Of a stretch of DNA of 64,000 bases, positions 6,774-43,976 are shown one piece after another. Position 1 is the first letter of the stretch. The number at the start of each line of letters is the position of its first letter. Origin of the DNA: Ruminococcus sp. (GTDB taxonomy: Bacteria; Bacillota; Clostridia; Oscillospirales; Ruminococcaceae); NCBI GenBank assembly GCA_021205185.1, contig JAJPYB010000011.1, positions 33,990 to 97,989 on the forward strand, given 5' to 3'. Below the pieces are notes generated by a model, which made no database searches, had not been told where the DNA came from, and was given only the letters and a program-made list of their open reading frames with translations. A program made the translations under genes and the position numbers.

Positions 6774-7109
6774 GTTCTCGTCCACTAACGTTCTGCCGCG
6801 AATTGCGGGCGACGCTACAACATAACCGTGCAGCAAAGCCTGCCTTATAGTATTGCTTTTTGAAGGCTCCTCTGCGTTTGCAGGGCAATAGCCGCCGACA
6901 GCATTTGGCATAAAAATCGGCGCAGTCTTTAGCGTATATCCGTTTATGCTTTGACCGCTAAAATATGCCAATGGCGCATAGATATTCATTCTGTGAAAAT
7001 TCTGTATCGGCTTGTCGGCAAAAATAACATCTCTGTACGCACGGTAAGGAAGCTTTTCGCCGTCGATTTCTACACTCTCGTCAAAAAAATTATTCTTATT
7101 AAAATTCAT
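6774..7109 (-). pseudogene. N-terminal fragment (~112 aa) of a tannase/feruloyl-esterase-like alpha/beta hydrolase
   Basis: MNFNKNNFF...YRAYRDVIF...INGYTLKTAPIFMPNAVGGY...HGYVVASPAIRGRT resembles the N-termini of bacterial tannase-type esterases. The frame runs straight into the ABC fragment, so ORF-track entry 6591-7157 is a chimera. Confidence 0.6.
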
Positions 7110-19043: not shown

Positions 19044-19688
19044 TTACATACTGATTACACCCAACCTGACAAACACGGGATACAGGTAACTTGCCCCAAA
19101 CACTCCCATTTTCTTAGGACCTGTAACGCCACCCTCCAAAGCCCTCTTATGTGCCATCTCGACGCTGCTTCTCGTCACAGCTTTTTCCTTCCGACTTATC
19201 TTCATCTCACCGCCGTGGACTGTATATGTAAACTTTAATCCCTTACTTATTTGGAATGGATATCCCTCGAATAAAATGATTGCATCCCACAGGTTCTCAA
19301 ATGTTGTCGTCTTAGTTAACTTTTCAACTGCGGCCCTTCGCTTTCTGTACAACTGAATTCGTTCAGCATTGACAGACAATTCTTCCGCCTTGTATGGCGG
19401 CTTTGCGTACGGCAGATAACTGTTAACGGAGGATTTTGATAAGCCTGTAATTGTCATGATTTCCGACACTGACTTCTCCTCCAGGAGTCTCTGCACATTA
19501 TCTGCTATTTCAGACCGGTAGCAGTTTGCAGTAATGAGTAGCTTGCGGATTTTTATTGGGTTCAGGTCAAGCTCATTTGCTGTCTTTTGGAGTGATTTTG
19601 TTTTGCTGTATATTTCAACCGCCGCAGTCATCATATCAGATAATATTTGCTGTGAATCATAGGTTGGCTTTTTCTTGTTTCTACTCAT
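19044..19688 (-). CDS. hypothetical protein with predicted helix-turn-helix segments
   Basis: ATG at 19688 with the SD AAAGGGGGG. 214 aa with HTH-like stretches (SLQKTANELDLNPIKIRKLL; SVSEIMTITGLSKSSVNSYL). No family was recognised. Confidence 0.5.
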   Translation of the reverse strand: MSRNKKKPTYDSQQILSDMMTAAVEIYSKTKSLQKTANELDLNPIKIRKLLITANCYRSEIADNVQRLLEEKSVSEIMTITGLSKSSVNSYLPYAKPPYKAEELSVNAERIQLYRKRRAAVEKLTKTTTFENLWDAIILFEGYPFQISKGLKFTYTVHGGEMKISRKEKAVTRSSVEMAHKRALEGGVTGPKKMGVFGASYLYPVFVRLGVISM

Positions 19689-19744
19689 AAAGGACACCCC
19701 CCTTTTTCCATTTCAATCTATATAAAATCCAAGGGGACAAGAAA

Positions 19745-20620: not shown

Positions 20621-20896
20621 TTACACCCAATGCAAAAACTTATACTTACCGCCATTATACGAGATACAGCCCTCTTCGATCAAGTCATTCAATTCGCTAT
20701 CAAAAGACACTCTGATACCCAAACCAACTCCCGGCTGTTTAGGTGGCAGATATACTTTCTCCAAATCCTCTCTGGTAATTTTTCCGGCTTCTTTTATTGC
20801 TTTCAATAAATCCATATTGCAGACTCTTGATATTCTCATTTTCTGTCTCTCCTTTACATAAACCACATTAACAACCGTACTTTCTCTTTCTTTCAT
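20621..20896 (-). CDS. small hypothetical protein (possibly winged-helix)
   Basis: 91 aa. Its start overlaps the stop of the SGNH gene (ATGA). Confidence 0.4.
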   Translation of the reverse strand: MKERESTVVNVVYVKERQKMRISRVCNMDLLKAIKEAGKITREDLEKVYLPPKQPGVGLGIRVSFDSELNDLIEEGCISYNGGKYKFLHWV

Positions 20897-22069
20897 TTCT
20901 CCCAGCTGAATATCAACCCCTGAAAAGCATCCGCCTGTTCCTTACTGGAAAACACTATCTCGATTTGATCCTCCACAGTGCAGTCATCTGAAACAATCAG
21001 TATATGCCGCTGTGAGAAATCATAATTGAATGTAACCGTCGGAGCTTCGAACAGTTCTCCATCCACATATATTTCCGTCACATTATCGCCGCTCTGCCAG
21101 CTGTAATCAATTCCAAGAATACCAGAAATGGAAAGGCCTGCGATTGTGTAGGTGGTGTCATCTATGCGTTCAAACTCATCTGCTGCAATATAGCGAAAGT
21201 TTTCAAACTTCACAACATTAGCATTCACAGGCTCTATATCATAATCCGGGAAGCCTTCAATGTCATACACTCCCTGGTCTATTACCTTTTCAACCACTTC
21301 TGCGTAGATCGCCTGACCAGCATCATTCGGATGAACACCATCATCAGTATAAGAATCGTAATCCTCAGAGAACGGCTCAATCGTGTCAGCAACTGGGATG
21401 CCATAATAATCACAGATCTCCTGTATTGTTACCATCTTCTCGGTGTAATCCTTCTGTGAGGATTCGAGTATGGAAATGATGGAGCAGTTTTCATACTTGC
21501 TGCTTATTGCCCTTATTATCGTTTCATAATAAAGGGGGAAGTCTGTCGTGGAATCGTTCTGGCCGTAACATATCACAGCCAAGTCATAATCAATGTCATC
21601 GTCCAGCTTCATAACCCTGCTGTAACCGGCATAGGAAGCGTTACCACCCATGGAAACATTGGTAAGACTAACAGTCCCTCCGTATTGTTCTGCAAGGTAT
21701 GAGTTGAGCAGGGTCGTCCATCTGTGTGATTCATCGCTTGCACCGGATGTTGCCCCAATGGAATCCCCGACTATCAGGATATTTACATCATAACCCTTGT
21801 CGAGTTTCTCATAAAAGCTTGAATTAACGATATCCTCTTGTCTTGCAGCTTCTTCTGCCTCAGATGCTTCCTCTTGAGCTTTCCGTTCGGCATCCAGTTC
21901 CTCTTGGAGGCTTCGCAGATAAGCTGATTGTTCTTCCTGCTGGATGTGGTCATAGTAGAGCATTCCTGCAAGACCAACAGCAAGAACAATAATTACAATT
22001 GTTATAATGATGTTAAATGTACGGCTAGAGGAATACCCCCCGCCTATGGTGGTGATGACTATGCGACAT
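20893..22069 (-). CDS. SGNH/GDSL esterase 1; the N-terminal leader and TM anchor are out of frame at a G6 tract (uninterrupted ORF 20893-21963)
   Basis: GDSIG and DDGVHPN motifs are present. The ATG at 22069 has an AAGGAG SD and encodes MSHSHHHHRRG, then the G tract. The TM segment NIIITIVIIVLAVGLAG lies in the catalytic-domain frame and is joined only if the tract is G5 or G8. Confidence 0.7.
22036..22041 (-). repeat. homopolymeric G6 tract (C6 on the plus strand); candidate slipped-strand switch
   Basis: Read directly: gaata-cccccc-gcc. Confidence 0.9.
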
Positions 22070-22198
22070 TTTCCTCGTCTCCTTCATTACATTGTTACTC
22101 TATTTCAAGCTGCTGCATCAGCAGCCGTACTTTCTCCTTCTTCTCGTCCGAGACTACTTTCTCAAGCATCTCTTTTCTTCTGCTCAGCCCTCTGAACT

Positions 22199-23202
22199 TT
22201 ATGTTTTCTTCTTTCCGTACAACCACGGTGCATATTTGTTGCTGAACAGTACAATTGGAACGATAATAAACAAAACTGCAATTGTCGCGGAAAGAAACCA
22301 GAACAATTCAGATCTGCCAGGCAAAATTAATACTGTTAAACGCATCATGGCAGCCCTACAAATCTTGCATATAGCAAACTGCCACACATATATTACAATT
22401 GAATTTCTTCCGCACCAATTCAAGTATGAGGAGTCTCTTAACCATCCTGCAATGCCCCACACGCCTGCAATTCCAAGAAGAGCTGTAACCGCAAACAAAA
22501 GGAGATTACCATACTCATTGTCATACATTGCCACAGGCGAATTTAAATCAACAACACAGAAGAAAACGATAACCAATATGGTACCAATAAAACCATTAAT
22601 ATACGAATTTCTGAATCCGAGCTTTTCCTTAAAAGTCTTTATCTTCTCTCTTCGGCTGCCGAAAACATACCCGCATATGTAAAAGAAGAACGCCATCGGT
22701 ACAATACTAATATAGGTAATTTCAATCCCATTTTGACTGAACAGCAGCAAAACAATAATCGCTACAATATCAACAGCAACAGTAATGATAAGTCCTTTGG
22801 ATTTGGTCAAATCAAGCACCATCGTTAATGCAAGATACAGCACAGACACGAGAAACAAAACTGGCAAAAACCAATAGTCGAAAATAAAGCTAAGAGGATT
22901 TGGCAAACTTCCACCAGCTGATAAGTTATCAACAACAGTTACAATATATTGCACAACCAGCAACGTTACCTGCGGAATCAAAAGAGAGCGAGCTTTCTTT
23001 ATGTACTGCGAATACCCCCCCGATATGGCTTAGCCGTCATTCCGGACAGAAAGAAAAACAACGGCATATGAAATGCAAGAATAATCTTGTTAAGATAAAA
23101 ATCAAGATTACCACAGCAGTGTCCTGTAATAACCAAAAGAATTGCTATGCCTCTGGCTACATCTATTTGTTTATCTCGATTCATAAAATTGCCTCCAATC
23201 AA
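22199..23202 (-). CDS. acyltransferase family 3 (AT3) O-acyltransferase 1, split into two ORFs (22999-23202 and 22199-22981) at a G7 tract
   Basis: The N-terminal piece reads RDKQIDVARGIAILLVITGHC...FHMPLFFFLSG, an AT3 signature. The downstream 260-aa piece is polytopic membrane. G8 or G5 fuses them (..KPYRGG-YSQYIKKARSLLIPQV..). Confidence 0.75.
23015..23021 (-). repeat. homopolymeric G7 tract (C7 on the plus strand)
   Basis: Read directly: aata-ccccccc-gat. It coincides with the AT3-1 frame break. Confidence 0.95.
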
Positions 23203-23261: not shown

Positions 23262-24785
23262 TCAGTGTTTACCAATCAGTTGGCAAACTTTCTTAATCAT
23301 CCATTTAAACTCATCCGTCCAAAAGCCTAACAAAAGGAACAGCACATTAATCACAATAAATACAATTATGGCCGCTACAATCCATGAAAGCCACCCATTT
23401 ATACTAAAAAGACATACAGTAATATGAGTAAAATATCCAAGAGCGGATACAATCATAAATCTTAATAAATATGTTATATAATAATTTTTAGGCGACCTTT
23501 TAAACCCGTACTTGAATACAATATAAGGATCATACCAAACTGTGGTAATTAACCTGGCAACCAAAGTGGCAAATACAACACCAAATACACCCATTCTGTT
23601 AACAAGGATAAAATCAAGTGCCAGATTAATTATTGCCATTACAACTGGCCTGAGTTTGCCGTACCAAAAAAGTCCATACGTGTTCCGAAAAGCAGAATTC
23701 ACACTAAGCATACCAAGCGTATAAAAATTCATTGATATAGCCCAAACACAAATTTCGCTTAACTGATACTCTGTTCCTATCCAGACATCAATAAATGGAT
23801 TCATCAGCGCCCACAAACAAATCGTACAAACCCCGTAAATCCAGAAATTAAAAAAGTCTAGCCTTTTAAACAGGGTATGATTGAAACTATCACTTTCCGT
23901 TGCCGTTGCATTTCCTACACTGGCAGTGAAACCTGAAACAATCTGTGACAAGAGACTGTTCAGGGCATTCGTTATCATAGTATAGTTGGAATAATAACCA
24001 TTTATAATTACCCCCAAAAATCTGGAAATAATTATACCATCGGTACTGTTGAGAAGCGTTGTCCCGACCTTGTAAAGCGATACTGCAAAAACATTTTTCT
24101 TTATACCGTTTTTTTCCTCTGCGTCAAGTTTGTAATCATACTTCTTCTTTATATAAGGATATCGTTTGTTACATTCATGCGATACATAAAGATTTTTTAC
24201 CAGTGTAATTACTGTATTAACCAAAAGATAAAGGATGAAATTATGTGTAACTGACAGCATAATACACTGAAATAGAGCTAAAGCGATTGAGCAATAATTA
24301 TTAATTTTCGTAAGCACATATGCTTTTTGATCGCTTGTAATCAACAAACTCTTATACGACCAAAAATAGCTTATCCCAGAATTCAGGACAAATAAAAGGT
24401 ATATAATTCTTATTGATGAAATATCCGGCATTTCACTTACCAGATATTGCAGGAAAGGTGTAAGACACGCACCAACAACAAGAACCACGGTTCCAATGAT
24501 GTAGTATATTTTTGAATACAAGCGCATCAGTGCGTTAATTTTCTTCTTATCACCGTTTGCCAATGGTTCATATAAACTAAAAGGGATTGCTAGACCAATT
24601 CCAAGTTCAGCCAAAGAAAGCATGGAAATGATATTTGTAAACAGACCATTTACACCTACATATTCCGCACCTAATTGCTTGACCAGAACCGTTCTTGTAA
24701 TGAAAGTTAAGACCGTTACTAATCCCTGGTTTATAAAAGCGTATATTATATTTCTCGTTGAATTCTTTGTCCTTGAATTTTCCAT
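23262..24785 (-). CDS. wzx: Wzx-type oligosaccharide flippase (MOP superfamily)
   Basis: 507 aa with about 12-14 TM helices. The N-terminus KNSTRNIIYAFINQGL..L..F..R..L...LG.EY.G is typical of polysaccharide biosynthesis/flippase proteins. Confidence 0.8.
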   Translation of the reverse strand: MENSRTKNSTRNIIYAFINQGLVTVLTFITRTVLVKQLGAEYVGVNGLFTNIISMLSLAELGIGLAIPFSLYEPLANGDKKKINALMRLYSKIYYIIGTVVLVVGACLTPFLQYLVSEMPDISSIRIIYLLFVLNSGISYFWSYKSLLITSDQKAYVLTKINNYCSIALALFQCIMLSVTHNFILYLLVNTVITLVKNLYVSHECNKRYPYIKKKYDYKLDAEEKNGIKKNVFAVSLYKVGTTLLNSTDGIIISRFLGVIINGYYSNYTMITNALNSLLSQIVSGFTASVGNATATESDSFNHTLFKRLDFFNFWIYGVCTICLWALMNPFIDVWIGTEYQLSEICVWAISMNFYTLGMLSVNSAFRNTYGLFWYGKLRPVVMAIINLALDFILVNRMGVFGVVFATLVARLITTVWYDPYIVFKYGFKRSPKNYYITYLLRFMIVSALGYFTHITVCLFSINGWLSWIVAAIIVFIVINVLFLLLGFWTDEFKWMIKKVCQLIGKH

Positions 24786-27228: not shown

Positions 27229-28416
27229 TCACCTCTTTATAATAGAATAGCTGTTGTATGCTTCTTTAATATATTCTGGCATAACGGCATTCAAATGAGT
27301 GCGGATATCATTCTGGTTTTCATTCAACCATAAAAAAGCGTTAGCTATTTGCTCTTTATCGTCTACTTTGTCCACCTTAAGCACATAATTTTCATCTGTA
27401 CCAAACAAATCCCTTGCGATTCCGACTGATTTAACGGAATAACCGATAACCAGCGTTGGAACACAACTGGAATAAGCCGCAATAGTAGAATGAGTTCTTG
27501 CACCAATAAACATCTGACATTGCGAAATGATATATTTAAGTTGAGCCGCATTGTAGTCTTCCCCAAGCAAAAGCATATCCCCATAAGACTCGCAGGCTTG
27601 ATACAGCTTTTCCAAAGGCTTATAATCCGAGCCTCCCATTACATGAGGAACAAAGATTGGAGTATAACCCTTTTCAATTATCTTCTTAACCATATTTTGA
27701 TATGCTGCAAAAGTGACCTCGGCACTTCCTCCATACTGCGGATCAAGGATTAAAGAACTAAGATTAACTCCCACCATTTTACCTTTTTTCCACCCTTGGG
27801 GAAAATCAACCACCTCTAAAGGCATTGCAAAAGCCGGATCGGGATAGTATCTTATATCTTTTTTAGAATACTTAGTGGTCAAATTTTGTTTACTTGTTCT
27901 CTCCCTCACAGTTATAGCATCGAATTGAGAAATATCGCTTATCACTTCATCAGTAATATCATTTTCACCAAATGAGCAATCATACATAATCATCCTGGCA
28001 TTCGCCTTTATTCTTATCACCGAATGAAGCTCATGCAAATTTTCAAACATATTATAATGGATATCATAATTGTCTCCACCCACACATATGACCACATCGC
28101 TCTTTTTACATATGTCAATCAGTTTCGAGTATCGAATACTGGCAGCAGCAGTCCGGAGCTTTAGAACTTTTTTAAAAAACGTATAAATTGCTCCCATAAT
28201 AAGATTTTTCTTGGTCACAGTTGACTTTCTAATAAATCCCTTTGTATTAGGTAGTGGTGGCAGTTCTTCTATGTCAGCATCATTTGAGACAATCCACACC
28301 TCTGCATTGGATTCATTGTGGCATATGATTTCCGATATCCCTCTGGCTAATGCCTCTGAACCGCGATTGTTTTTTACTGTATTCAAGATAACTATGTATT
28401 TACTCATGTATAACAC
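27229..28416 (-). CDS. polysaccharide pyruvyl transferase 1 (WcaK/CsaB-like)
   Basis: 395 aa with N-terminal VILNTVKNNRGSEA, VICVGGDNYD and C-terminal IGARTHSTI motifs typical of the family. Confidence 0.8.
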   Translation of the reverse strand: MLYMSKYIVILNTVKNNRGSEALARGISEIICHNESNAEVWIVSNDADIEELPPLPNTKGFIRKSTVTKKNLIMGAIYTFFKKVLKLRTAAASIRYSKLIDICKKSDVVICVGGDNYDIHYNMFENLHELHSVIRIKANARMIMYDCSFGENDITDEVISDISQFDAITVRERTSKQNLTTKYSKKDIRYYPDPAFAMPLEVVDFPQGWKKGKMVGVNLSSLILDPQYGGSAEVTFAAYQNMVKKIIEKGYTPIFVPHVMGGSDYKPLEKLYQACESYGDMLLLGEDYNAAQLKYIISQCQMFIGARTHSTIAAYSSCVPTLVIGYSVKSVGIARDLFGTDENYVLKVDKVDDKEQIANAFLWLNENQNDIRTHLNAVMPEYIKEAYNSYSIIKR

Positions 28417-29465
28417 TCTTTTCTGTTTTTAATAATGTTTTCACTTTTGAATAAAGAAGATATATCAATAATGGGACAACAATCCCGACTATAGTGTAGC
28501 AAATCCACCAGCCGCCATTTGAGTATAAATACCCATGTGTTTCTAAGGCTTCAATAGGCTCTTTATATATCAATATCTGTAACACAGTAACAAGTTTAAA
28601 AGCTGCGAAGTGAAACATTACAATTGGAAGAGTGTGCTTACCCATATATGAAAGTCCCGAAGCTAACGGTGTTCTGCCAAGAAGACATCCGACCGCATAA
28701 CACATAGCTGTTCCTGAAATAGAGCATATGATAAAGTACAACGGATTAACCAGCCTATTCATATTGATCGATAAGTCTCCAAACATATGCATTATACTAA
28801 TTATAATCGCACCAACAAGCATAATGATAACAGAATTACGTACTGACAAGTTTCTCTGCACTCCACTCTTCTTTGCAACAAATCCAATCTGAAATAGAAT
28901 CAATACCGAGAATATATTTCCGTACTTTCCAATTGGACTATAATACAATAACCATCCAACGAGTAAGCATATGAAGCAAATAAACGTCTTCATAACTTCC
29001 TTCTTTTTGAAACACTTCGTGCAAAACCAATCAATTACAGCATATAAAATCGTGGCACAGAACATTGTTCTTAAAAACCACATTGCTCCACTTAAACTTT
29101 CTCCACCTGAAAAGAAAAAACACTTGAGCAAACCGGTTAAAATCTGCTTTACACTGTACCCCCCCCCCGCCGGTAATATGCAGCATATTAAGCGGATTAT
29201 GTAGAAGAACAACCGCCGAATTAAATAGCACGCAAGGGACATATAGCGACTTAATTCTCGATATAACTAACCCTTTCAAAGATGCAAAATCTTTAGAGTG
29301 CCTTTCGCTATAGCAAAATCCTGCTATAACAAAGAATACAGCCATATGAAACTGGTAAATCCACCTTGTATATACAAACCCGCTGTGCCCGATCACCATT
29401 AGAATTATTCCAACAGCTTTAGTAATATCAATTGTTCTATTTCTTTCCATCTTTTGTTTCCTCAC
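28400..29465 (-). CDS. acyltransferase family 3 (AT3) O-acyltransferase 2, frameshifted at a G10 tract
   Basis: The N-terminal piece reads RNRTIDITKAVGIILMVIGHS...FHMAVFFVIAGF. The membrane-domain frame continues (GGGYSVKQILTGLL...) if the tract is G9 or G12. Confidence 0.75.
29159..29168 (-). repeat. homopolymeric G10 tract (C10 on the plus strand)
   Basis: Read directly: ctgta-cccccccccc-gccgg. It coincides with the AT3-2 frame break. Confidence 0.95.
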
Positions 29466-30547
29466 ACCTCATCTAATCTTGAAAGGGCCATAACTAACCA
29501 ATCCCTTGATTCATCACGATGTGTTGCAATCTTATTGTTAATGACCTCATAATCCAGTGTATCAAAATCCTCGTTATTATATATACCGCTCTTAATTTCT
29601 CTACCCTTAATGCAAAAACGACTAAGCATATCCTCCACGCGAAGATTGCGTCCTTTTTTATCATGATCCAATTCAACAAAGAATTCTTTTGCAAAAATGA
29701 GCGACATTGCAGTTCCGTGAAACGAGTTAGTAACTACATAATCTGCATTCATAAAATAACCTACCGCAGCGTCTGGTGCTAAAGCATCCAGATAAATTCC
29801 ACGACCCTTTTTTTTAAATCCAGAATTGAGAAAAGCAACCTGCTTTCCTGTCTTAGCGGCAAGACTATGGGCAAAGTCAGACAATCTCTCAGAATATCCT
29901 ACGGAAAACACTAATATGTAATTCTCCTGTCCAACTGTACCCGCAAACTCTTTCCACTGCCTCTCTGCAAGCAAGAATGTTGGATCTAACACGATTGCGG
30001 GTTCCCTGCCAGAAATTTTCTTAACAAAATGCGCTGTTTGTTCATCTCTGACGGATATTTCATCAAAACGCAAAAGATCCTCCCTAACGTTATCTAATTG
30101 CGCTTCTGAAGGGAAAAATTTATCAGAGCAGGCGGCATATGATATTCGTCTGTTAGTACCATCTACAAAGTCAAGATAATATCTCCTATCATTTCCTGTT
30201 ATTGAATAATTCCATATCTGATCACTCCCAGTAATAAATATATCATATTCTTTATTTACTCGGTTTACATCAAAGTCAGCCGGTTGAAGCTTATCATCAA
30301 CGCAATCTTTAAATGAATCCCATTTTTTTCTCCGTGAGGAATACAAAAGTAAATCGAGCGGGAAATATTTTAGTGGTTTTATGCGTATAGTTGGATAATA
30401 AACACCCTCGATTTTATTGCTTCTGTAATCTATAATATCTACAGTGTATCCCAAAGATTTCAGCGCCTCCTTTAAGGCATATGCTTGGAAAAAGGCACCG
30501 TAATTAACTGCTCTATGAAAAGTTATAATTCCTATATGTTTCATCAA
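29462..30547 (-). CDS. polysaccharide pyruvyl transferase 2
   Basis: 361 aa with an N-terminus IGIITFHRAVNYGAFFQAYAL typical of the family. Confidence 0.8.
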   Translation of the reverse strand: MMKHIGIITFHRAVNYGAFFQAYALKEALKSLGYTVDIIDYRSNKIEGVYYPTIRIKPLKYFPLDLLLYSSRRKKWDSFKDCVDDKLQPADFDVNRVNKEYDIFITGSDQIWNYSITGNDRRYYLDFVDGTNRRISYAACSDKFFPSEAQLDNVREDLLRFDEISVRDEQTAHFVKKISGREPAIVLDPTFLLAERQWKEFAGTVGQENYILVFSVGYSERLSDFAHSLAAKTGKQVAFLNSGFKKKGRGIYLDALAPDAAVGYFMNADYVVTNSFHGTAMSLIFAKEFFVELDHDKKGRNLRVEDMLSRFCIKGREIKSGIYNNEDFDTLDYEVINNKIATHRDESRDWLVMALSRLDEV

Positions 30548-43239: not shown

Positions 43240-43976
43240 TTATCCATACACATACTCACTAATCGCTTCCGCCCATCTCTCATATGCCTCATCATAAAGA
43301 TGGATACCATCCTTTGTCAGTTCTTCCGGCATTACCCCATCTACTGCATACAATTCATATAAATCAATAAATATTATGCCCTTCTGTTCCGCCATTTCTT
43401 TTATTAACCCATTCAGTTCGCAGATATTTTCATTAGATATAGAATTCCCTCTCATATCTGTGTTCACTGGAAGAATGCTTTGAATGTAAATCTCAACATT
43501 GGGGCATTCTTCCTTAATTTCAGCAAGCAGTACCTCATACCTCTCAACTATTACATTCAAGTCCCCTTGGTAGTTGTTCAAATCATTGACTCCGGCCATA
43601 ATGAATATTTTCTCTGGATTGACTGCTGAAATCATTCCGACACGTGTCTGCATTTTTGTGATCGTGTCACCAGTCAGTCCTAAATTAACTATGGTCAAGT
43701 CCTCGAAGTAATCCTGAAAGGACGAACCCCTAGTGATTGAATCCCCAAAGAAAACAACATCTGAATCTATATCCAGCTTTTCTAAACAAGATTCCCATGA
43801 AACAGCTGTCCAGTCTGTGGAAACGGTTGGCTCTGCCAGTCCAAGATGTGATAGAATTTTATTGTCGTATCCTGATGTGTGCAAAAGGAAGCCAAAAGCA
43901 CATAGCCATACGATATTAGTAATTACCAATAGAGGAAGAAGAATACCCCCCCACGCCAAATTTTCTTATTTTTCAT
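43240..43976 (-). CDS. SGNH/GDSL esterase 2 with an N-terminal TM anchor; the ATG start is out of frame at a G7 tract (track ORF 43240-43959 uses a TTG)
   Basis: FFGDSITRGS and DGIHL motifs are present. The ATG at 43976 has a GGAGG SD and encodes MKNKKIWRGG, then hits a stop after 17 codons unless the tract is G8 or G5. Confidence 0.75.
43946..43952 (-). repeat. homopolymeric G7 tract (C7 on the plus strand)
   Basis: Read directly: gaata-ccccccc-acgcc. Confidence 0.95.

Follow-up and report, generated by a model that had tools for sequence, protein, structure and literature searches.

Repeat-switched O-acetyltransferases (oafA, pglI and wciZ) and the poly-G phasomes of Campylobacter and Neisseria are well known, and the slippage-switch mechanism is therefore not new, being textbook in Haemophilus, Neisseria, Campylobacter and the pneumococcus. 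For instance, Neisseria pglI is an example of a poly-G contingency gene in glycan modification, and slippage of a TA repeat in wciZ, the capsule O-acetyltransferase gene of Streptococcus pneumoniae, constitutes the switch between serotypes 15B and 15C. Campylobacter, in addition, lacks MutS/MutL mismatch repair. Because, in known systems, capsule O-acetylation alters both how phages adsorb and what antibodies recognise, stochastic switching in commensals would have a bearing on phage-host dynamics and on how strains persist in the gut. The 15B/15C topic is treated in PMC5028725. Haemophilus influenzae oafA encodes a phase-variable AT3 O-acetyltransferase of lipooligosaccharide (LOS) (PMC9558356, PMC3938747), and RiCEX, the founder of CE17, is a 2-O-acetyl-mannan esterase of Roseburia intestinalis that combines SGNH and CBM35 domains (bioRxiv 10.1101/788067). 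Here, a 64,000-nucleotide (nt) stretch of DNA (the window, in whose positions all coordinates are given) from an uncultured gut Clostridium of the Oscillospirales/Ruminococcaceae type is described. Within a surface-polysaccharide cluster, it carries a minus-strand pair of adjacent genes for an AT3 acyltransferase and an SGNH enzyme, each of which has its own frame-determining G tract, as an earlier interpretation made from the letters alone (the sequence-only reading) had stated. The pair is best explained as two neighbouring accessory genes, each with an independent poly-G slipped-strand ON/OFF switch, an explanation to which a probability of roughly 0.7 is given.

A comparable Gram-positive system is wciZ, in which an O-acetyltransferase gene is likewise toggled by simple-repeat slippage, with consequences for capsule O-acetylation. 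In contrast to the window pair, the repeat in wciZ is a dinucleotide one, and the gene stands alone, without an esterase-like neighbour that bears a second switch. Similarly, the window AT3 gene and H. influenzae oafA both have an intragenic simple repeat toward the 5′ part of a gene for an AT3 sugar O-acetyltransferase. Unlike oafA, the window gene has a G homopolymer in the loop between transmembrane helices (TMHs) 2 and 3, belongs to a Gram-positive-type gut commensal with intact mismatch repair, and presumably targets a capsule or exopolysaccharide rather than LOS. The clustering of several coding-strand poly-G tracts, in mixed frames, in the accessory genes of a surface-glycan locus is reminiscent of the poly-G contingency genes for capsule, LOS and glycan modification of Campylobacter jejuni and Neisseria (PMC11868660); however, in contrast to Campylobacter, the host is an uncultured Clostridium whose genome (G000) keeps both mutS and mutL.

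The AT3 gene is interrupted by a G7 tract

As sequenced, the AT3 gene consists of two pieces in different frames. The 5′ piece (22999..23184, minus strand) runs from an ATG at 23184, with GGAGG 8 nt upstream, to a premature TAA, and encodes TMH1 and TMH2. It reads MNRDKQIDVARGIAILLVITGHCCGNLDFYLNKIILAFHMPLFFFLSGMTAKPYRGG into a G7 tract at 23015..23021 (minus strand), which is preceded by ..MTAKPYRGG, and the ATG frame ends in IRST* just past the tract. The 3′ piece (22199..23029, minus strand) comprises 276 open codons that encode TMH3-10, and closes with a TAA at 22199-22201. A tract of G8 gives ..KPYRGGYSQYIKKARSLLIPQV.. in frame, and G5 restores the frame too with one Gly fewer. The sequence-only reading, which had the gene broken by this G7 and restored by G8 or G5, was thus correct in its coordinates, sequence and frame arithmetic.

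PF01757 covers residues 5-311 of the repaired protein of 328 amino acids (aa) in one uninterrupted match that includes the tract (model positions 2-324 of 326, E 6e-31), and AT3 homologues of approximately 330 aa cover 99-100% of it with no alignment break at the tract. Both R11-X10-H22 (in TMH1) and FFFLSG (residues 43-48), which are encoded by the 5′ piece, are invariant in the homologue alignment. The tract lies in loop 2-3, where it is flanked by KPYR (52-55) and KKAR (63-66), a basic-XX-R type rather than a strict RXXR. Ten hydrophobic segments are present, and the sequence ends after TMH10. Pearson et al. 2020 (PMC7448272) give criteria that separate AT3-only proteins from fused AT3-SGNH proteins. 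Because the repaired AT3 has no regular-expression match to the GG-F/Y-XGV-D/P/V motif of the fused-type loop 1-2, and has no 11th TMH, it is by these sequence criteria of the AT3-only type, like Oac.

Since close orthologues of the AT3 gene were absent in 40 relatives, its tract was compared at the level of the subfamily, the best homologues being 36-40% identical to the window AT3. In the alignment, these encode GG or GGG in the equivalent loop after FFFLSG..AK. At the DNA level, homologues of 36-39% identity have uninterrupted runs in this loop: G9 in L176-L178, G11 in L179, and G7 in L180-L182 (L-numbers denote compared loci and P-numbers compared proteins). For a further AT3 gene in the L176-L178 lineage, three samples share the same flanks but not the same run: G10 and G11 put the gene out of frame, and G9 keeps it in frame. 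These runs sit in the loop after FHMPLFFFVSG. The G9/G10/G11 series is a natural ON/OFF series at the site homologous to the window AT3 tract.

Two further observations were made on other genes. A second AT3 gene in the window, at 28400-29468, is split by a G10 at 29159-29168 (..LNMLHITGGGG, with the remainder in another frame). Additionally, the AT3 homologues are trailed by a conserved GxSxG protein of 245-276 aa (VGASSGGFIG; L176:5067-5819, L178:3637-4374, L179:5045-5875 and L180:5009-5827) that has no Pfam match, and for which no homologue was found in the window's own genome. A G-run near the 3′ end of its gene, G9 in L176 vs G7 in L178 (98.8% identity), alters the C-terminal tail, which in L179 and L180 is a longer, partly hydrophobic extension.

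The SGNH gene is interrupted between start codon and membrane anchor

The SGNH gene has a leader frame (22025..22069, minus strand) that starts at an ATG at 22069, with AAGGAG/GAGG ahead of it, and that reads MSHSHHHHRRGVFL* with the G6 tract as sequenced (22036..22041, minus strand). Hydropathy indicates a single N-terminal transmembrane (TM) anchor, FNIIITIVIIVLAVGLAGMLYY (21955..22017, minus strand), in the frame of the catalytic domain; the segment YSSSRTFNIIITIVIIVLAVGLAGMLYY in this frame reaches Kyte-Doolittle values of up to 2.8, and no canonical start (ATG, GTG or TTG) was found in it upstream of 21963. The G6 tract therefore parts the Shine-Dalgarno-preceded ATG from the anchor and catalytic frame, as had been proposed, and either G8 (RRGGYSSS, where the family consensus is RGGY) or G5 (RRGYSSS) joins the two. 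The open reading frame (ORF) that remains (20893..21963, minus strand) has 356 aa, with a helical stalk, an SGNH domain (PF13472/PF00657) and a modelled C-terminal beta-sandwich. It starts without a complete anchor, also as proposed, its ATG lying inside the end of the TM helix.

The sequence-only reading further suggested that the tract toggles localisation or expression, and these two parts fared differently. An AGGA abuts the internal ATG at 21963 directly, with no spacer and hence no usable Shine-Dalgarno sequence, and this Met is not conserved in the family. Therefore, the tract most likely switches expression OFF, and a change in localisation is unlikely.

Among full-length proteins, P0002 is closest to the repaired SGNH protein (73% identity; MSNHHHRRVCVGGYSSKRTFNIITTIVIIVLAAGLAGMLYYEH), and the two are collinear. 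The repaired protein also fits a family consensus of approximately 380 aa, in which M..RGGY(R/S)S is followed by a TM helix and a charged helix, and these in turn by the SGNH domain and a C-terminal domain. Given this collinearity and the single PF01757 stretch of the AT3 protein, homology is continuous across both tracts. A G-run of G6-G10 is present at the equivalent N-terminal site in ten related loci, drawn from a named genome collection, and in L086 (GCA_965296165.1), a syntenic locus that was added to them; these represent both Lachnospiraceae and Oscillospiraceae and include cultured isolates. In nine of the ten (L086 apart), the run falls between the start codon and the anchor. The gene is out of frame in L006, L007, L012 (a Brotaphodocola catenula isolate) and L013, all with G9, and in L034 with G6, and it is in frame in L016 (G8), L022 (G9), L028 (G10), L017 (G8) and L086 (G7). 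L017, which is [Ruminococcus] faecis JCM 15917, has a second frame break further downstream in its SGNH gene, and L031 (Butyrivibrio sp. MC2013) has a G9 just upstream of the SGNH start codon. In the lineage of P0089, RGGY is encoded by an interrupted run (CGGGGTGGG, CGGGGTGGGTAT), which amounts to a locked-ON form. A run that is pure in some lineages and broken in others while the peptide it encodes is conserved, with mixed frames, is the usual signature of a contingency locus.

The AT3 genes that neighbour SGNH relatives each own a repeat, too: the frame of the L007 gene breaks exactly at a G7, the L017 gene contains G7 and G8, and the L016 gene, with G6 and G7, is in frame. Thus, the arrangement of one switch per partner recurs in other genomes. 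The combinations of states differ, with both genes ON in L016, both OFF in the window and L007, and AT3 OFF with SGNH ON in L086. The repeat in the AT3 gene of L086 is (AAGC)10 (6867-6906 of that locus), immediately after the ATG and out of frame; it is of the H. influenzae oafA repeat type, here in a clostridial genome.

Several further features of SGNH-type genes were observed. The cytoplasmic tails of the family are His-rich, with MSHSHHHH in the window (22045-22069) and a run of approximately 15 His in L010 (the tails of L009, L010 and L014 were compared). A second SGNH gene in the window (43240-43976), unrelated to the first (no BLAST match), has the same layout: GGAGG, an ATG at 43976, MKNKKIWRGG, a G7 at 43946-43952, a stop after 17 codons, and an anchor, ILLPLLVITNIVWLCAFGFLL, in another frame. 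Proteins of this type are currently cut short by gene callers, or are given a spurious GTG or an internal Met codon as their start (P0003, P0004, P0005 and P0121).

Tract abundance and length variation

In G000 (1.75 Mb, 42.6% GC), runs of G6 and G7 are singly not rare (24 and 10 runs, respectively). G/C runs of at least 7 number 27, vs approximately 3-6 expected from the decay of shorter runs, and A/T homopolymers have a normal length distribution. Eight of the 23 internal long G/C runs lie in a 22-kb part of the locus, all of them coding-strand poly-G (binomial P 2.6e-10), and the set of tracts at the locus is thus not due to chance. Poly-C at contig ends (G000 C4:1-21 and C9:20-42) resembles an assembly or sequencing artefact and was excluded from the tract counts. 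Internal runs of at least G9 were also found in most of the 19 genus genomes searched, some of the matches being contig-end artefacts. As a cause of the tracts, loss of mismatch repair or general hypermutation was considered and rejected, since mutS and mutL are intact in G000. The MutS protein of G000 is only 55% identical to its counterparts in Ruminococcus and Oscillospiraceae metagenome-assembled genomes.

For a comparison within the strain, the window was set beside two independent Logan assemblies, L093 (SRR15221356) and L094 (SRR15221354). L093 shows no difference from the window across 7.6 kb, its tracts being G9, G7 and G6. L094 has three differences in 4.9 kb (99.94% identity), of which two are G-tract lengths, i.e. 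G7 vs G6 at the SGNH tract and G5 vs G6 at 19697-19702, and the third is a single-nucleotide polymorphism. The sequence-only reading had allowed for the tracts being in reality a monomorphic G5 and G8; because the SGNH tract is G6 in L093 and G7 in L094, they are not.

If the two genes are independently switched accessory genes, slipped-strand mispairing at replication would shift each G run by one base. G8 would give RGGY in both proteins, matching both family consensuses, with each gene in frame. As sequenced, the AT3 gene would yield only a 61-residue stub, and G8 would yield the full 328-aa O-acyltransferase with ten TMHs. Translation of the SGNH gene would end after 14 codons, and G8 or G5 would give a full type-II anchored, outward-facing enzyme, in which an SGNH domain with a CBM35-like lid is predicted to sit on a helical stalk and for which RiCEX appears to be the closest known relative. 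Both genes would be OFF in the sequenced population. When expressed, the AT3 protein may add O-acyl groups to the polysaccharide of the locus during or after export, and the SGNH enzyme may act on that polymer outside the cell, so that two independent switches could generate up to four surface states. The positions and frames of the tracts, the homology across them, their conservation and ON/OFF variation in relatives and the one length change within the strain are observed; switching within a clone is what we infer.

Several observations weigh against this explanation. All three assemblies of the strain agree on G7 for the AT3 tract, and the SGNH tract, either G6 (window and L093) or G7 (L094), is out of frame in both forms. 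For this strain, the protein collection contained neither gene as an ON allele, and patterns of exact flanks with a variable G gap were found neither in metagenome contigs (both tracts) nor in genome contigs (AT3 tract). Among the SGNH alleles examined across relatives, 8 of 13 are out of frame, which could also point to read-through. A length of G6-G7 is rather short for rapid slippage, and the genome retains mismatch repair. Finally, we only infer which substrates the enzymes use and in which direction the SGNH reaction runs.

The fold of the SGNH protein resembles RiCEX

The SGNH domain matches PF13472 (E 2e-17) and has Ser68, Gly107, Asn136, Asp208 and His211 (blocks I, II, III and V); S68 and H211 are the same in all 28 sequences compared, and at least 90% of these keep G107, N136 and D208. 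The AlphaFold model of the SGNH ORF (predicted local distance difference test score, 90.4) comprises a long helix (2-46), the SGNH domain (60-233) and a beta-sandwich (255-354). In a Foldseek search, the top matches were the RiCEX structures 6HFZ/6HH9, with template modelling scores of 0.66-0.69 across both domains (about 0.68 over approximately 360 columns, E 4e-18). RiCEX leads the list by ten orders of magnitude in E-value, has a profile match of E 3.6e-10, and is the only two-domain relative by sequence profile and fold. In contrast, no structure of OatA, OafB, PatB or Ape1 was among the top 50 matches for the model.

The window protein and RiCEX share an SGNH domain with a C-terminal CBM35-like beta-sandwich and the canonical Ser/Gly/Asn/Asp/His residues. 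They differ in that the window protein, which is approximately 20% identical, has a His/Arg tail, a TM anchor and a helical stalk of approximately 45 residues. Because of this topology (a basic cytoplasmic N-terminal tail, one TM helix, a helical stalk and an outside domain), the window protein is predicted to face outward; RiCEX, in contrast, is an intracellular enzyme that works on oligosaccharides after their import. Moreover, the window protein is encoded in polysaccharide-synthesis loci rather than in a mannan-utilisation locus, and its gene is poly-G switched. The enzyme is more likely an esterase that trims or edits O-acetyl groups than the obligate transferase half of AT3. A decision between esterase and transferase by motif was dropped as uninformative, since SGNH motifs do not tell the two apart (PMC9487903).

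Genomic setting of the gene pair

Directly upstream of the AT3 gene is a gene for a Wzx-type flippase (23262..24785, minus strand), a 507-aa ORF whose identical counterpart in L093 has a weak PF01943 match. The spacer between the AT3 and SGNH genes contains a remnant (22098..22193, minus strand) that represents the 3′ end of an NTP_transf_5-type gene (..GLSRRKEMLEKVVSDEKKEKVRLLMQQLEIE*). By tblastn, this remnant and the C-terminal end of the gene preceding SGNH in L006 share 78% identity over 32 aa (E 1e-13). DNA homology with L006 spans window positions 22194 to 20896, and so begins right after the AT3 stop codon. A repeat comparison also identified a 27-nt direct repeat, D1, with one copy upstream of the SGNH gene (22116..22142) and another, 85% identical, immediately past its stop codon (20866..20892). 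Because the L006 homology starts at the AT3 stop, an NTP_transf_5 remnant is present and the D1 repeat brackets the gene, the SGNH gene is, by its sequence, a recombined cassette, of which the remnant marks the left edge. A scan of the pair for terminators and promoters gave nothing above the shuffled expectation.

Pfam scans, which were used as tblastn and a home-made hidden Markov model proved too insensitive, covered 33 loci of the SGNH family. Only about 3 of these have an AT3 gene within 4 kb, and one has an MBOAT gene; of the 48 hydrophobic ORFs within this distance, four pieces match AT3, in line with three such loci, and one matches MBOAT. The genes that precede SGNH relatives mostly encode Wzx flippases, glycosyltransferases, LicD, ZIP transporters or methyltransferases. 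Conversely, the AT3 homologues are trailed by the GxSxG-motif protein in place of an SGNH gene. The order of flippase, AT3 and SGNH in the window recurs in L086, although its AT3 aligns with the window AT3 at 40% over 83 residues only. The most abundant member of the SGNH family is the P0089 lineage (L087-L092, from human gut metagenomes), in which the gene sits between fucose-salvage genes (Fkp and FucU) and an AraC regulator, next to genes for GDP-fucose synthesis, with no AT3 nearby.

Are the two genes halves of one enzyme?

The sequence-only reading had regarded the pair as a split OafA/OatA-like module. In such a module the genes would encode two halves of one O-acetyltransferase, each half being switched, with AT3 carrying acetyl across the membrane and SGNH transferring it to the sugar. 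The adjacency and the separate tracts on which this idea was built stand, and the genes adjoin on the same strand in L086, L007, L016 and L017 as they do in the window. Like OafA, OafB and OatA (PMC7448272), the locus has an AT3 with R/K-X10-H, FFxxSG and a basic-XX-R loop, and beside it an SGNH domain that is tethered by one TM helix and predicted to face outward. By sequence and model, this topology is what a detached TMH11-linker-SGNH would look like, though it comes from a cassette of separate origin. Additionally, the AT3-only protein WecH can hand acetyl to the unfused SGNH protein PatB (PMC9558356), and with AT3 OFF the SGNH tract appears to drift (G6 and G7), as expected if SGNH is useless alone.

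The family claim, however, is not supported. Unlike in OafA, OafB and OatA, the window genes are separate, and neither the fused-type motif of loop 1-2 nor TMH11 is present in the AT3. The nearest fold is that of an esterase, RiCEX, OatA, OafB and PatB being absent from the Foldseek top 50. The pairing is also not conserved: most SGNH relatives are without AT3 or MBOAT within 4 kb, the usual neighbour of the AT3 subfamily is the GxSxG-motif protein, the AT3 partners are only 24-40% identical across genomes, and the SGNH gene is a cassette with a foreign remnant upstream. This linkage evidence speaks against a conserved pairing, while the topology and the WecH/PatB precedent speak for possible cooperation. 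A split-enzyme function is rather unlikely, and the two genes are probably not halves of one enzyme.

A more speculative and less probable extension of the two-switch explanation is that the AT3 and the anchored RiCEX-like SGNH protein form a natural two-gene system on one polysaccharide, as writer and eraser or as donor and transferase. This system would have four heritable O-acetylation states, with the start-to-anchor tract conserved family-wide in gut Lachnospiraceae and Oscillospiraceae. If this were true, cultured bacteria that carry the family, for example Brotaphodocola catenula and Mediterraneibacter ([Ruminococcus]) faecis, would be tractable for the study of partner use by AT3-only proteins and of multi-locus repeat phasomes outside pathogens.

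Decay, read-through and sequencing error

A less favoured alternative to two functioning switches is that both genes are dead or dying leftovers of recombination in a variable locus, in which the G runs are break points and no consequential switching takes place. Such decay would be in keeping with the presence of only OFF alleles in this strain, with the shortness of the tracts (G6 and G7), and with a mosaic locus in which the SGNH gene is surrounded by a gene remnant and the 27-nt repeat. Nevertheless, it is unlikely, as neither downstream frame contains a premature stop and no conserved residue has been lost, G-runs occur at the same two sites in many distant relatives, whether ON, OFF or interrupted, and two of the three between-sample differences fall in G tracts.

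It is quite improbable that the out-of-frame alleles are still expressed, through slippage of RNA polymerase or ribosomal frameshifting, with the tract tuning dosage. The frequency of out-of-frame SGNH alleles noted above would agree with this, but changes in length are directly observed in the DNA, and no stimulatory signal was noticed, although none was sought. A variant, in which an anchorless cytoplasmic SGNH isoform is made from the ATG at 21963, could draw on the fact that RiCEX itself works inside the cell; it is countered by the lack of spacing between AGGA and that ATG and of conservation of the Met. That the frameshifts are merely homopolymer miscounts in genes that are really intact is highly improbable: homopolymers are a known source of error and some contig ends of the assembly carry poly-C artefacts, but runs of 6-7 bases are well within short-read accuracy, L093 reproduces G9, G7 and G6 exactly and L094 reproduces the AT3 G7, A/T homopolymer lengths are normal, and artefactual runs are present only at contig ends.

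Repeat-based switching in gut Clostridia

In the literature searched, no reports of repeat-based switching of glycan genes, or of phasomes, in gut Lachnospiraceae or Oscillospiraceae were found, and the nearest example from a gut commensal was a G-tract pilus switch in Bifidobacterium breve (PMC9187656). What is new here is the host group. A recent review asks whether multi-locus phase variation is restricted to pathogens or whether this impression reflects database bias (PMC11868660). The window locus and its relatives argue for database bias, as they come from abundant gut Clostridia and have tract sites that are conserved family-wide in two unrelated enzyme families.

Additional repeat tracts in the genome

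The G6 at 19697-19702, which is the second polymorphic tract within the 4.9 kb shared with L094, lies in the Shine-Dalgarno region (AAAAAGGGGGGTGTCCTTTATG) of an ORF at 19044-19697, and may tune its translation initiation. The sequence that follows the tracts is also uneven: among the 23 G000 runs of at least G7, the next base is T in 18 and the next two are TA in 14, vs TA in 8.3% after G3-G6 (P about 3e-10). The tracts at 23015 (AT3), 22036 (first SGNH gene) and 43946 (second SGNH gene) have GGGTATTC in common, and those of relatives are mostly G(n)-TAC. Elsewhere in the genome, runs of G7-G10 lie between TTGAC and TATAAT-like boxes at C1:19967, C4:132100, C9:78590 and C9:217025 of G000, and these are candidate promoter-spacer switches.

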